Shown here: positions 1,549 to 58,895 of the stretch, in pieces
Numbering within the stretch: the first letter of the stretch is position 1
How the letters are laid out: each line of letters opens with the position of its first letter
Sequence record: CP054387.1
Length of the DNA: 64,000 nucleotides
Direction: 5' to 3' (one strand)
DNA from: Escherichia phage CMS-2020a
Translations under genes and position numbers: made by a program
The notes under the pieces: generated by a model
What the model was told of the DNA's origin: nothing
The model's input: the letters and a program-made list of their open reading frames with translations, nothing else
The model's database searches: none

Positions 1549-1866
1549 TGGAGAGTTCCCTTTGCGTATATAATTATCGTCTGAAACAACTTGTTTTCTT
1601 ATATGTGATATAGCCTAAATGCCTACGGCTGCGGTGTAAAGGTTAAATGGCAGGTTGTGATTAACAATTGGCAAACATAGCTTGTATTTGTCTGTTGAAA
1701 AAAGTAACAATGACCTCTATATTACAAGTACGGTGATATGCTGTACACAATTTGATAATGCACACGTAATGGGCTATAGCCTTTTAAAGTAATTTTTGAG
1801 TCGAAAACTCAGTTTGAACAGAGGAGATTGATGGCCTTCCTACATCACGGCCATCAGGAGGAATAC

Positions 1867-2136
1867 ATGTCAGCACTAAAAAAGCAGCGCATCGATTTGA
1901 GATTAACCGATGACGATAAAAGCATCATCGAGGAAGCTGCCGCAATGTCTAACCAGAGCATTACTCAGTTTATGGTTAGCAGTGCATCTGAACGTGCCGT
2001 GAAAGTTATAGAGCAACACCGTAGACTGGTTCTGAATGAAGAATCCTGGAATCTGGTTATGGACGCTATAAGCAATCCTCCGGCACCGAACGACAAGCTG
2101 AAACGAGCTGCTGATCGTCTGAAAAGCATGGAGTAG
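1867..2136 (+). CDS. DUF1778-type antitoxin (AtaR/TacA/KacA-like) of GNAT toxin
   Basis: ORF track starts at TTG 1828; ATG at 1867 has AGGAGG 6 nt upstream; MSALKKQRIDLRLTDDDKSIIEEAA... closely resembles the AtaR/KacA antitoxin family as I recall it; stop 8 nt before toxin start. Confidence 0.8.
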   Translation: MSALKKQRIDLRLTDDDKSIIEEAAAMSNQSITQFMVSSASERAVKVIEQHRRLVLNEESWNLVMDAISNPPAPNDKLKRAADRLKSME

Positions 2137-2143
2137 TTTACTC

Positions 2144-2665
2144 GTGGATAATATAAAGATAGAAATTTTCTCTGGAGAGAAAGATTATGATTTGAATGGT
2201 TTTGATTGCGGTGAAGAATCACTAAATACCTTTTTAACCAACCACTTAAAAAGGCAGCATGAGGGAAAAATTCTTCGCGCTTATGTGCTTTGCACGAAAA
2301 AAGGCAGACCAAAAGTGTTAGGGTATTACACTTTGTCAGGTAGCTGCTTTGAAAAGGAGTCCTTACCTTCAAGAAGCCAGCAAAAGAAGGTACCTTATCG
2401 GAATGTTCCAAGTGTTACTTTGGGTAGGCTGGCTTTGGACAAGTCCCTTCAAGGTCAAGGATTTGGCTCAATGCTTGTAACACATGCAATGCGCGTTGTG
2501 TACAATGCATCTCTTGCTGTAGGCATTCATGGACTTTTCGTTGAGGCGTTAAATGACAAAGCCAAGGCGTTTTATAAAAGTTTAGACTTTATCCAGCTGG
2601 TTGGTAACAACGAGCGTTCTTTGTTCTATCCTACAAAATCTATCGAAAAATTGTTCGAAGAATAA
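2144..2665 (+). CDS. GNAT-family acetyltransferase toxin (AtaT/TacT/KacT-like)
   Basis: 173 aa, GTG start; GNAT motif A region RLALDKSLQGQGFGSMLV, C-terminal KAFYKSLDFI; directly follows DUF1778 antitoxin. Confidence 0.8.
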   Translation: MDNIKIEIFSGEKDYDLNGFDCGEESLNTFLTNHLKRQHEGKILRAYVLCTKKGRPKVLGYYTLSGSCFEKESLPSRSQQKKVPYRNVPSVTLGRLALDKSLQGQGFGSMLVTHAMRVVYNASLAVGIHGLFVEALNDKAKAFYKSLDFIQLVGNNERSLFYPTKSIEKLFEE

Positions 2666-2696
2666 TGTACTCCCCTCAAGTGAGGGGAACTTCGCA

Positions 2697-2882
2697 TCAC
2701 CAACCGCAAACTCTCTCTCCCATCGTATTGTGAAAAAGGATTTGGCGTTCGGTTTCTTCGGTCATCACATCATTATTGCTGATATAGATAGGCCCAGCTC
2801 CATCGCAGAACAATACGCTGGCGGTTTGTGGTTTAATGACGCACCCACTTATCATACAACTCACGATGAACGGCAGAAGCAT
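2697..2882 (-). CDS. o-spanin (Rz1-like outer-membrane lipoprotein) candidate
   Basis: Internal ATG at 2882..2880 of ORF 2697..2912; MLLPFIVSCMISGC has lipobox ISGC; overlaps the 3' end of the Rz-like ORF in another frame at the end of the lysis cassette. Confidence 0.45.
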   Translation of the reverse strand: MLLPFIVSCMISGCVIKPQTASVLFCDGAGPIYISNNDVMTEETERQILFHNTMGERVCGW

Positions 2883-3084
2883 CTTTCTGACGTATTTTAT
2901 TGCTCGTCTCATTCACCACTTCCACTGTGCTTTGAAGTCGTTTTCTGTCTTCCTGTTTTGCCTTCTCTTCCATTGCTCGTCGCGCCGCATTCCCGCCCAT
3001 CGTGTAAGCGCCGACAAGAACGAAAAGAACGGCAGCCAGCGTAATCAAAGCAACTTTTAGCTTTGTCATCAGGCTGCCTAGCAT
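2833..3084 (-). CDS. i-spanin (Rz-like) candidate
   Basis: 83 aa, N-terminal hydrophobic TM segment (LKVALITLAAVLFVLVGAY) then charged helical region; immediately downstream of the endolysin-like gene; unusually short for Rz. Confidence 0.4.
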   Translation of the reverse strand: MLGSLMTKLKVALITLAAVLFVLVGAYTMGGNAARRAMEEKAKQEDRKRLQSTVEVVNETSNKIRQKDASAVHRELYDKWVRH

Positions 3085-3085
3085 A

Positions 3086-56450: not shown

Positions 56451-56553
56451 AATTGCACCATTAAGAAATGATTTGTTTAATGATGCAATTATTTCAAAAA
56501 TAAAAAGGTGCTAAATAGAAATTAACAGGCAATACTTAAAATAAAGGCATTGA

Positions 56554-57228
56554 CTAATCATACTTGGATGTATTTATAACCAGGACTTTATTTGTATATA
56601 GTTTTTTTACATTCCATGTAACATTACTTGAATACCATTCACCATTATATATTTGGTTTCCCGTTGCGCCTGTCATTGTTACGTATACAGGTCTGTCGTA
56701 AGGTGTTCGTCTATAGTTATATACTCCAACCATTGCAGGCATTATCGCACACGGGTATCCCATATTTATGGTAAATTGAGGATTTGTAATAGTGATAATC
56801 TCTGCATCAAGGGGCATCATCTCACCGTGATATACCATTTTACCTGCGCTATTATACATGGCAATACCATATCCTGAATGTGGTAACACCATATCAGAAA
56901 AAGCATAAACTGTTATCGTTCCGGGGTTTCCTCCAACCTGATTCAGTCTGAGAACATTATACCCATCTCTAAATTCATGAACGAACATCATATTCGCCTT
57001 ATTACTGCTTTTTATAAAGAAAAAACATGATTTGTTCGACGGTATTGAAGTCTTAAAAACAGAACCTTTAGACGTGGACATTGTCCCCCTATTAATCAAA
57101 TTTTGCGGTGTAAATTCTGGACTCATCCACACATTACCATTTGACTGAGTAATTGACATCCCGAACATTATTGTTATCCCCAATATGTATATATATAAGA
57201 TCCAAGTCCCTTGTATAAATTTGACCAA
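56554..57228 (-). CDS. hypothetical AT-rich membrane/secreted protein (possibly 3' part of a frameshifted gene)
   Basis: 224 aa, TTG start, hydrophobic N-terminus ILYIYILGITIMFGM; overlaps 57174..57455 at a (TA)5 tract. Confidence 0.4.
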   Translation of the reverse strand: MVKFIQGTWILYIYILGITIMFGMSITQSNGNVWMSPEFTPQNLINRGTMSTSKGSVFKTSIPSNKSCFFFIKSSNKANMMFVHEFRDGYNVLRLNQVGGNPGTITVYAFSDMVLPHSGYGIAMYNSAGKMVYHGEMMPLDAEIITITNPQFTINMGYPCAIMPAMVGVYNYRRTPYDRPVYVTMTGATGNQIYNGEWYSSNVTWNVKKLYTNKVLVINTSKYD

Positions 57229-57455
57229 CTTACTGTATTGCCGTTAATAGTGATAGTTGGTGTAGGTATATTTACATGGTTATCGTTATTTAAAGGCATC
57301 AATGAGCACACAGCATGTAATGATTTGCCAGGTGGTGGATTTGGGTAAGTCTTAGAGCCTGACGTGGTTGTAAATCGATCAAGAAAAAAAATAGGAGTAA
57401 GGAAGCCGGTAACGTTAACTCCCTTATTATTGTAGATCCCTGTACCGTATGCCAT
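57174..57455 (-). CDS. hypothetical protein (possibly 5' part of a frameshifted gene)
   Basis: 93 aa ORF ending ...GSYIYTYWG inside the (TA)5 tract 57188..57197. Confidence 0.35.
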   Translation of the reverse strand: MAYGTGIYNNKGVNVTGFLTPIFFLDRFTTTSGSKTYPNPPPGKSLHAVCSLMPLNNDNHVNIPTPTITINGNTVSWSNLYKGLGSYIYTYWG

Positions 57456-57509
57456 TTTTCATCCTTGTTTTTATCAACATAATATGGCCGATCATGCGGC
57501 CATATCAGA

Positions 57510-58079
57510 TCAATTAGAGCTTTGAAAGGCTTTGTGTGGCTGTGTTGCGAGGTTATGTCGATGGCTTAACTCACGCATCATGTCTTCAAGGCGACTCTTT
57601 GTGTCGTCGAGTTGGTCAGCCATTGCTCCTAAAAGCTGACGAACTACCATCGGATCGTCGCTGTTTAGTGATGGCATTTTATAACCCGCCTGAGAAGACA
57701 TCAGATTGAATGCTGACATCAACATCGTTAGAGAGGATTTAAGCCCGGCAATTTCACGATCTTTGCTGGCAATAATCGTCTCACTTTTGTTACTGTCATG
57801 AGTTCCTTGAGTCTCGATCACCATATCCAAAGTCTCTTGCAACTTATCAGCTCTCTGTTTTTCAGCAAGATAATGAACACCGAAATGATGTGCTAAAGCT
57901 ACAACCTGAGTTGGCTCTTCAAAGGTGGACTCAAAATTAAGTGCTGTAACCACTCTCTCAAAAATGGAAACGTCTTCTATTCCTCGAAGAATGGCTAACA
58001 TTTTGACAAGTTCATTAGCATCCATTTCTTCGAATAGGGCGTTTTGTTCATCAGCTATTGCTTTGCATTTCTCGCACAT
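57510..58079 (-). CDS. hypothetical protein
   Basis: 189 aa ORF; palindromic motif 58098..58115 just upstream of its start. Confidence 0.45.
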   Translation of the reverse strand: MCEKCKAIADEQNALFEEMDANELVKMLAILRGIEDVSIFERVVTALNFESTFEEPTQVVALAHHFGVHYLAEKQRADKLQETLDMVIETQGTHDSNKSETIIASKDREIAGLKSSLTMLMSAFNLMSSQAGYKMPSLNSDDPMVVRQLLGAMADQLDDTKSRLEDMMRELSHRHNLATQPHKAFQSSN

Positions 58080-58376
58080 ATGTTTTCCTTAATGCTTAAA
58101 CAAGTTGTTTTCTTATTGGCTTTATTGTGATGTGGCATAAAAGGGGAGCAAGCTAAACGTAAAGGTGCAAACTCTCTATTTCGGTCAACGAAACACAATG
58201 GCCATTTGACCCTTGTCATTAACACGTTGCTTTACGGACTAGCGGATAAGCGAAGTAGATCGCCAGACCAATGAGGACGCCATCAGAAATGACAGACATC
58301 ATCTTTCCCGTAAAATCCACCAACACCGCCATCACCAGAAGAGCAATGACGGTCACAAGCCGGAATCTCTCAAGCA

Positions 58377-58802
58377 TTAGAGATAAGCATCCAGTGACAA
58401 CTGAAGCGCCTGGGCGATCTTTTTCAGCGCCTGCTCTTCTGGTTCATCAATGCCGTCTTGGTCGGCAATATCAAGGCACAGACAAAGTACATCTACTGCA
58501 TCATCAGTCCCGGCCACATCCGCCAGCTCACGTAAAGCCTGGGCATTAGCACGGCGCGGTGAGGCTTCGTATTGAGCGCGGATATTGGCGCTCATCTGGG
58601 CAATCTCACCAGCAAAAGGAGAAAATGCAGGCAGAGCTGCAATTGTTTTCTCAAGAATGGAAATTTCTTTTGCATCGCATGTACCGTTGGCATAGGAGAT
58701 CATGTACCCACCCCACACGGTGGCTTCAACCGCATCACGGTTCTCCATTTTTTTGACTTCGATAACTGCTTTACGAGTTTTCTTTTTGAAGAAACCTAAC
58801 AT
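58377..58802 (-). CDS. hypothetical protein (weak TerB-like resemblance)
   Basis: 141 aa; palindromic motif 58826..58843 upstream; acidic C-terminal segment DIADQDGIDEPEEQAL. Confidence 0.4.
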   Translation of the reverse strand: MLGFFKKKTRKAVIEVKKMENRDAVEATVWGGYMISYANGTCDAKEISILEKTIAALPAFSPFAGEIAQMSANIRAQYEASPRRANAQALRELADVAGTDDAVDVLCLCLDIADQDGIDEPEEQALKKIAQALQLSLDAYL

Positions 58803-58895
58803 GTGTTTTCCTTTTGTTATTGGTCAAAACAAGTTGTTTTCTAGTTAAATAAATTGCTTACGCAAAGACGGTCAATGCATATGCACTAACAACCG

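Follow-up and report, generated by a model that had tools for sequence, protein, structure and literature searches.

A dispersed 13-bp palindrome of SSU5/pHCM2-type phage-plasmids as a putative operator in two registers with extended -10 promoters

Phage P1 persists as a plasmid prophage, and the operators of its C1 protein, which are asymmetric and 17 bp long, are scattered over a genome of ~100 kb, where they overlap lytic, replication, and other promoters. KorB of plasmid RK2 is both a ParB-family partition protein and a global repressor, with about a dozen 13-bp OB sites of 6-N-6 geometry, some of them lying ~39-40 bp upstream of transcription starts. Omega of pSM19035 and ParG of TP228 are centromere-binding proteins of type Ib that also act as repressors, either globally or on an operon, and the phage-plasmid N15 has dispersed sopC centromeres. 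Here we analyze a palindrome, AAACAA-N-TTGTTT, that recurs in a stretch of 64,000 nucleotides from Escherichia phage CMS-2020a (sequence record CP054387.1), which is called the window throughout and is numbered from its first letter. As far as can be judged from sequence, the palindrome would resemble the P1 C1 operators, the KorB OB sites, and the omega regulon in function, while being a member of none of them.

By its sequence, the window is part of a phage-plasmid of the SSU5/pHCM2 type from E. coli/Shigella. Over its first ~42 kb it is 100% identical to NZ_CP022085.2, a plasmid of E. coli O104:H4, and it shares 95-99.8% identity with plasmids of Shigella sonnei and with the phages PhiR41_1 and Cyrano. 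Almost all of its genes lie on the minus strand; they encompass tail, head, and terminase functions, a type Ib parA operon, a KacAT toxin-antitoxin pair, a cluster of small early genes, metG, apbC, and others. Clinical isolates of E. coli, Shigella, Salmonella, and Klebsiella commonly harbour phage-plasmids of this type, to which pMT1 of Yersinia pestis also belongs and which carry resistance genes; almost nothing is known so far of their gene control and of the choice between plasmid and lytic states. As relatives we compared the whole E. coli plasmid, Salmonella phage SSU5, Klebsiella phage pJN2-26, and a distant Klebsiella plasmid with only ~68% identity around terS.

The palindrome is much more frequent in the window than composition would predict. 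The exact core AACAA-N-TTGTT occurs 10 times against 0.16 expected, and its 19-mer form, with ≤3 mismatches, 11 times against 0.07. A weight matrix built from 76 sites of the family retrieves 14 window sites at a cut-off score of ≥17 and none in shuffled sequence, after which there is a gap down to noise-level matches of ~9-10. All 14 sites are intergenic although the window is 86.8% coding, an outcome with a chance probability of ~0.13^14, and in an unbiased count of every 6-N-6 palindrome AAACAA comes out on top, with 8 copies versus 1 for the next. The first-pass annotation, which had been made from the letters of this sequence alone, had described an intergenic palindrome with a free centre base and had proposed to compare its frequency with chance, and on both points it was right: the motif is non-random, intergenic, and associated with promoters. 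Eleven of the 12 coordinates it gave were also correct, but the twelfth, 43771, marks only a decayed half-site (AAGAAAACAA-C-TAAATA, minus strand), and the sites centred at 39879, 42031, and 43566 had been missed. It had moreover included TTTTCT/AGAAAA arms in the inverted repeat. At nearly all sites this outer arm is present on a single side only, outside the symmetric site, and because of this one-sidedness the symmetric unit measures 13 bp instead of 19 bp.

When viewed along the minus strand, in the direction of transcription, the sites pooled from four genomes fall into two classes, A (n=40) and B (n=18), which hold different positions relative to predicted promoters, the predicted start being taken ~7 nt after the -10 hexamer. 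Class A sites follow the promoter, in the order TGn-GATAAT/TATTAT, ~10 nt (aacaCCAAca), AGAAAACAA-N-TTGTTTA, Shine-Dalgarno sequence, and ATG; the first base of the hexamer lies at -25/-26 from the dyad in 21/40 sites, with the dyad at ~+14 of the predicted start. Class B sites precede it, in the order hairpin of the upstream gene, AAACAA-N-TTGTTTTCT-aCCTTTTCTTATCTG-TGn-GAAAAT/GATAAT; the hexamer is found at +26 in 12/18 sites, the dyad lies at ~-38 (about -38.5) of the predicted start, and the palindrome is inverted relative to class A, as judged by its one-sided extension. The TG of an extended -10 is present in 15/23 and 11/13 promoters compared with a background of 7%, and its presence explains why the -35 elements are weak and why a generic sigma-70 scan did not call the motif promoters. 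From the palindrome centre, the start codon is 17-47 nt away in class A and 67-129 nt in class B. The earlier annotation, from which the two registers are absent, had correctly placed sites upstream of starts, but at 12-40 nt. Since the distance between palindrome and ATG is variable (18-72 nt), the motif appears to be placed relative to the promoter and not to the ribosome-binding site. The sites of the window, together with the hairpins that accompany them, are the following:

1584..1596, minus strand: class A site, exact, centre 1590, 42 nt upstream of the start of parA (880..1548)
29636..29657, minus strand: terminator-like hairpin with T-run, between the leader sites and the ATG of terS
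29658..29670, minus strand: terS-leader site, exact, centre 29664, 47 nt upstream of the start of terS (28985..29617)
29683..29695, minus strand: second terS-leader site, 1 mismatch, centre 29689, exactly 25 bp from the first
39873..39885, minus strand: class A site, 1 mismatch, centre 39879, with a GATAAT -10 at the fixed spacing; gene 39370..39852
40638..40650, minus strand: class B site, 1 mismatch, centre 40644, 26 nt upstream of TGTGAAAAT; gene 40203..40577
41540..41552, minus strand: class A site, exact, centre 41546, with the extended -10 TGGTATTAT; gene 41218..41529
42025..42037, minus strand: class A site, 1 mismatch, centre 42031; gene 41684..42013
43560..43572, minus strand: site with 1 mismatch, centre 43566, in a 1.5-kb stretch without annotated genes
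44446..44458, minus strand: class A site, exact, centre 44452, at ~+14 of a predicted promoter with GATAAT -10 at 44472-44477; gene 44133..44432
44497..44509, minus strand: class B site, exact, centre 44503, at ~-38 of the same promoter and 51 bp from the 44452 site
48435..48447, minus strand: class B site, exact, centre 48441, abutting the hairpin 48448-48468, upstream of the S24 peptidase gene 47923..48312
48446..48470, minus strand: conserved hairpin AAGGCCAC-N5-GTGGCCTT (-15 kcal/mol), where the upstream gene ends
53555..53567, minus strand: class B site, 1 mismatch, centre 53561, abutting the hairpin 53568-53588, with TGTGAAAAT 26 nt downstream; gene 52938..53480
58098..58110, minus strand: class A site, exact, centre 58104; gene 57510..58079
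58827..58839, minus strand: class A site, exact, centre 58833; TerB-like gene 58377..58802

Spacing is exact also between sites. Pairs exactly 51 bp apart, which flank one promoter at ~-38 and ~+14, were found in five cases in four genomes, SSU5, pJN2-26, and the distant Klebsiella plasmid being among them, and pairs exactly 25 bp apart in three cases, in the terS leader and one other leader. The hairpin within the terS leader (29636-29657) is kept in SSU5, in Klebsiella pJN2-26, and in pMT1, and suggests control of the late (packaging/structural) operon by attenuation or antitermination. As to the hairpins next to class B sites, the first-pass annotation had proposed combined blocks of terminator and operator at 48441 and 53561; both hairpins are real, but a canonical T-run on the coding strand accompanies one of the two only. 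In a terminator scan the segment 48470-48446 is terminator-like on the minus strand only via the T-rich arm of the motif, and its counterparts in the relatives have the same position with other stem sequences, while hairpin 53568-53588 (-9 to -12 kcal/mol) is terminator-like on the plus strand, opposite to the coding strand. A clear and strong hairpin terminator (~40665-40692, -13 to -14.5 kcal/mol) lies upstream of the 40644 site.

In regulatory terms, these observations raise a question: What reads the same 13 bp at so many promoters? The palindrome AAACAA-N-TTGTTT is probably an operator, present in dispersed copies, to which a dimeric DNA-binding protein of two-fold symmetry would attach; this putative repressor would be encoded by the element itself. 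The information profile has two arms equally conserved up to the dyad around a free centre (C16 G12 T6 A6 in class A), with a peak of conservation at positions -9 to +8; such two-fold symmetry with a free centre argues for recognition of double-stranded DNA by a symmetric dimer. Recognition at the level of DNA is indicated also because the motif is used in both orientations, is in fixed register with the -10, and lies in class B upstream of the promoter. The operator would sit within a family of sigma-70 promoters having an extended -10 (TGn plus GATAAT/TATTAT/GAAAAT) and a weak -35. In class A, the site would cover ~+5 to +22, in the interval that separates start point and Shine-Dalgarno sequence, so that a bound protein could block open-complex formation or promoter escape; in class B, the site would occupy the place of the -35 element, usually directly after the hairpin of the upstream gene. 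The pairs at 51 bp (same promoter) or 25 bp (leaders) may then reflect cooperative or looped binding. A regulon defined in this way would comprise parA, dnaB, nrdB, and cobT-dnaE (the latter three outside the window), many small early genes, and the leader of the late operon at terS, and the net effect could be coordinated silencing in the plasmid-prophage state and/or timed shut-off in lytic growth. The regulon-wide operator of the first-pass annotation is thereby kept as a prediction, with the dimeric DNA-binding protein as its best reading; the host regulator that had been offered as an alternative is possible, but we found no support for it.

A hairpin in RNA had been dismissed from the outset, correctly: folded as RNA the motif gives -0.7 kcal/mol (z = -0.36), which is no meaningful hairpin, whole leaders fold no better than shuffles, and an Rfam search matched no family. 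We have consequently rejected an RNA hairpin or known RNA family, the folding energy being at the level of shuffles. A different possibility is that the class A motif (AAGAAAACAA / UUGUUU), which lies in the first ~20 nt of the mRNA, is bound single-stranded by a protein of the FljA family, with block of translation and destabilization of the mRNA, as FljA does on the fliC leader. All family members do have such a protein (Pfam Flag1_repress, 8.8e-80), encoded on the strand of the lysogeny direction and expressed at log2 7-8 in most conditions of the Cyrano lysogen (PMC9928086), and induced mRNA decay would likewise lead to low mRNA levels in the lysogen. Yet the exact inverted repeat, with its C/G complementarity and free centre, has no rationale in single-stranded recognition of an RNA that does not fold. 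Class B sites, fixed 26 nt upstream of the -10, are outside the transcript of that promoter, and it is to the -10, not to the ATG, that the spacing of the motif is fixed. Furthermore, the motif is absent from the E. coli fliC leader, and it is unchanged in the distant relative, where the FljA-like protein is only 35% identical. We consequently regard this RNA-level explanation as unlikely. The same protein (36787..37311, plus strand) was tried as a reader of DNA, too, and largely rejected given its tandem Sm/Hfq fold.

The palindrome is a property of the whole family. Copies of AAACAA-N-TTGTTT with ≤1 mismatch number 19 in the E. coli plasmid, 20 in SSU5 (11 of them exact), 17 in pJN2-26, and 20 in the distant Klebsiella plasmid, compared with 0.2-1.1 in the shuffled genomes of the relatives, and when 6-N-6 palindromes are ranked in the distant relative, the AAACAA motif is again first, with 15 copies versus 2 for the next. 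Orthologous promoters share it across relatives, namely those of parA, dnaB, cobT, nrdB, the terS leader, and small early genes. The site at the parA promoter is found also in SSU5, pJN2-26, Cyrano, and the distant Klebsiella plasmid; that of the terS leader has orthologues in the same four and in pMT1, and the 43566 site is kept in SSU5, pJN2-26, and Cyrano. Aligned dnaB promoters are particularly instructive: the 19 bases AGAAAACAA-N-TTGTTTAA are retained save for one G-to-A change in SSU5, the central base varies freely (T/A/C/G), and the adjoining 25 bp upstream of the palindrome are nearly unalignable, with divergence extending to the -10 region. The test of conservation suggested by the first-pass annotation thus has a clear outcome, the motif being kept across the whole phage-plasmid family while its flanks diverge. 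Scanning of viral contigs for other families with the motif yielded multi-site contigs that were all SSU5-like and single matches attributable to chance.

This pattern bears upon two further explanations. According to one, the palindrome would have no dedicated reader and would hitch-hike in a copied promoter cassette, comparable with the promoter-stem-loop cassettes of T4 type, being kept as part of the start-site or initial transcribed region or of a terminator tail. Class A promoters do have sequence in common beyond the palindrome (TGnGATAAT-aacaCCAAcAAG), class B sites agree in the spacer CCTTTTCTTATCTG and in having a preceding hairpin, and the T-rich arm adds to the terminator-like tail at 48470-48446. 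In orthologous promoters, however, the palindrome stays constant and everything else in the cassette, the -10 region included, has diverged; one cassette cannot account for a palindrome found in two registers and in opposite orientations; perfect two-fold symmetry with a free centre is unexpected from promoter function alone; and the quantized spacing of pairs also counts against hitch-hiking. The cassette explanation seems to us distinctly unlikely. The other invokes a host transcription factor common to the Enterobacterales, which would couple expression of the phage-plasmid to the physiology of its host. It would account for the constancy of the motif in elements from Escherichia, Shigella, Salmonella, Klebsiella, and Yersinia, among which the majority of the candidates encoded by the elements are down to 35-80% identity. 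Against it, the motif strings found no match in the searchable literature, which was likewise without a match for operators or repressors of SSU5, and we know of no enterobacterial regulator with the consensus AAACAA-N-TTGTTT. Moreover, a reader encoded by the element, with 15-20 copies of its site in each, would be frozen in its specificity, and therefore invariance does not need a host factor, to which we assign very little likelihood.

Y. pestis pMT1 (NZ_CP009989.1) offers a natural experiment of sorts. It no longer contains the type Ib parA operon or the early-gene region, and has 4 palindrome sites left together with the structural, ParB-like, FljA-like, and HTH-repressor (helix-turn-helix) genes of the SSU5-type family. 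Because of the deletion of the early region and the young age of the lineage, pMT1 is only weakly informative.

Expression data are available for the lysogen of phage Cyrano, in which the background median is 9.8 units (PMC9928086, S1 Table). The first genes behind motif promoters are at 5-25 units and parA at 50, while toxin-antitoxin modules, repA, and a putative repressor reach 90-600 units (PMC9928086). The silence of promoters with an extended -10 in the lysogen fits their repression. Divergent from parA, the window has a toxin-antitoxin pair of KacA/KacT type (DUF1778 + GNAT; 1867-2665, plus strand), the homologues of which are among the most expressed phage-plasmid genes of the Cyrano lysogen, at 340-590 versus 9.8 (PMC9928086).

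The putative repressor just mentioned, a small HTH protein of XRE type encoded next to the integrase (homologue of CYRAN_45, outside the window), could be thought to read the sites as the master repressor of the prophage, in analogy with P1 C1. It carries that annotation, its expression is 96 versus the background of 9.8 in the Cyrano lysogen (PMC9928086), and many dispersed sites overlapping promoters are what the immunity repressor of a plasmid prophage needs. Nevertheless, its gene and the divergent partner are absent from SSU5, which retains 20 sites, 11 of them exact; the protein is 59% and 45% identical in two Klebsiella elements in which the motif is identical; and its own control region has TATATCATA repeats without AAACAA-N-TTGTTT. 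We judged this repressor unlikely as a reader, given its absence from SSU5 and the different repeats of its own region, and would give the corresponding explanation hardly any credit. The control region in question, at 3504-3750 of NZ_CP022085.2 and hence outside the window, is divergent between the HTH repressor and a small Cro-like gene, with repeats TATATCATA(A/T); the whole module is missing from SSU5.

For a reader encoded in the window, the following candidates come into question:

521..874, minus strand: 117-aa partner protein of ParA, in the parA operon, the promoter of which has a class A site
31638..32306 and 32306..32986, minus strand: two ParB-family proteins (Pfam ParB_N)
29813..30079, minus strand: probable winged-helix protein of 88 aa, encoded directly upstream of the terS leader

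We rank the ParA partner first, followed by the ParB/KorB-like proteins (31638..32986) and the 88-aa protein at about the same level, and then by a host factor. The parA product has 222 aa and belongs to the MipZ/ParA family; its partner has a core, KSRTMS.EDE...FTRSDVIRAAI, that is identical in 5 genomes. A search for the ribbon-helix-helix (RHH) fold in the partner left this fold unconfirmed, with a weak match to aCcr1. The homologue of the partner in the Cyrano lysogen is expressed at 89 versus the background of 9.8 (PMC9928086). Of the ParB-family proteins, which are 65-89% conserved in the relatives, one aligns with Spo0J/ParB/Noc including the HTH region and its paralogue weakly matches KorB; the promoter region of their own genes has no palindrome site. 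The 88-aa protein is the best conserved of the small candidates (78-100%) and has weak matches to LexA_DNA_bind and Lrs14/Sta1. It had been singled out by the first-pass annotation and stays a candidate, but as one of several and with a homologue that is silent in the Cyrano lysogen (7.8; PMC9928086). A test for covariation of protein and motif in the distant relative had nothing to extract, because the motif is unchanged there. The operon to which these genes belong (31638-32986 and 29813-30979, minus strand) encodes the two ParB-family proteins, two ABC-type ATPase-like proteins, and the 88-aa winged-helix-like protein; it lies directly upstream of the late operon, is present in all relatives, and is silent in the Cyrano lysogen.

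Should the reader be a partition protein, the palindrome could be a dispersed centromere and a global operator at once, read by the partner of ParA (521..874) or by a ParB clamp of KorB type (31638..32986). In this case ~20 sites would serve both segregation of the prophage and silencing of nearly all lytic, replication, and packaging promoters. The four sites of pMT1, which is without the pair of ParA and partner, are weak evidence against a centromere role, and we consider such a double function conceivable but rather doubtful. A centromere array near parA, like a restriction or modification site, was rejected: there is no repeat array, and exclusively intergenic sites argue for regulation. 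If the double function were true, a rise in copy number or the loss of a partition-type protein would itself trigger the lytic program, one DNA signal would serve both partition and the decision between lysis and lysogeny, and global control in the style of KorB and omega, known from conjugative plasmids, would reach into a family of temperate phages that is large and widespread in clinical settings.

Several points weigh against a dimeric repressor as the reader of these sites. About 40% of class A sites are without a clear -10 at the modal distance; promoter positions are based on consensus, the -35 hexamers being too weak for a generic sigma-70 scan; and a simple symmetric dimer does not explain the one-sided AGA extension. 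Silence in the lysogen could be explained equally well by promoters that need an activator. The class A motif lies in the predicted transcribed leader, where a role at the RNA level is conceivable. As to the candidate proteins, none could be linked to the motif: the ParA partner is absent from pMT1, which retains 4 sites, and the Cyrano lysogen does not express the homologues of the ParB-like and winged-helix candidates (PMC9928086).

Two other features of the window deserve mention. Upstream of the terS leader there is an AT-rich, near-perfect palindrome of ~57 bp with GC clamps (CCTGCTTCTGTATATATAAATAATAAGTAACTTATTAAATATATACGGAAGCAGG; ~29728-29790), a second copy of which is intergenic at ~61246-61306; the E. 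coli plasmid and SSU5 have ~3 copies per genome, and unrelated plasmids share stretches of 55-90 nt with it at 80-93%. A late-promoter or activator site, a terminator working in both directions, and a small mobile palindrome are possible readings. ATAAGT-N-ACTTAT, considered as a second dispersed palindrome, is part of this separate ~57-bp palindrome and shows no enrichment in the window. Around the conserved site at 43566, the region 42368-43910 extends for 1.5 kb without an annotated gene; it has an unusual strand composition (GC skew +0.10, AT skew -0.20), A/C-rich runs, and a strong internal terminator (42946-42920, minus strand), and may correspond to a non-coding transcript or an origin-like region.

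The practical value of an invariant 13-bp signal, fixed in position within most promoters of these elements, is that it predicts a regulon and defines a promoter architecture, extended -10 plus operator, in a family of phage-plasmids. It narrows the regulator to a handful of conserved proteins, which makes the circuit experimentally tractable, and it can be used as a diagnostic signature of the SSU5-type family in plasmid and virome data.

How, then, does this putative operator compare with the systems described before? As in P1, there is a plasmid prophage with many scattered sites that overlap promoters, and one protein could silence the program. Unlike the C1 operators, the site is here a perfect palindrome of 13 bp, the structural and regulatory genes are unrelated to those of P1, and a repressor of immunity type with an HTH is dispensable for retention of the motif, given its absence from SSU5. 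With the OB sites of KorB the palindrome shares the 13-bp 6-N-6 geometry, the dispersal in ~10-20 copies, and, for class B, the location at ~-38; the window, moreover, encodes two ParB-family proteins, one of which aligns with Spo0J/ParB/Noc over the HTH region. However, the consensus differs (TTTAGCSGCTAAA in OB versus AAACAANTTGTTT here), most sites come after the -10, centred at ~+14, the lysogen is silent for the ParB-like genes, which have no site in their own promoter region, and no partner similar to KorA was identified. FljA and fliC of Salmonella phase variation have a parallel in the FljA-family gene of the window and in the location of the class A motif, in a short 5' leader by the ribosome-binding site; the fliC leader, in contrast, is without the motif, which has the symmetry of a DNA site and occurs also at non-transcribed class B positions. 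The likeness with omega and ParG, finally, resides in a small Walker-type ParA followed by a small partner gene, in an operon promoter that has a site, and in a partner homologue that is expressed in the lysogen; with omega there is the additional likeness that the same site is reused at many promoters, while N15 provides the precedent for dispersed centromeres in a phage-plasmid.

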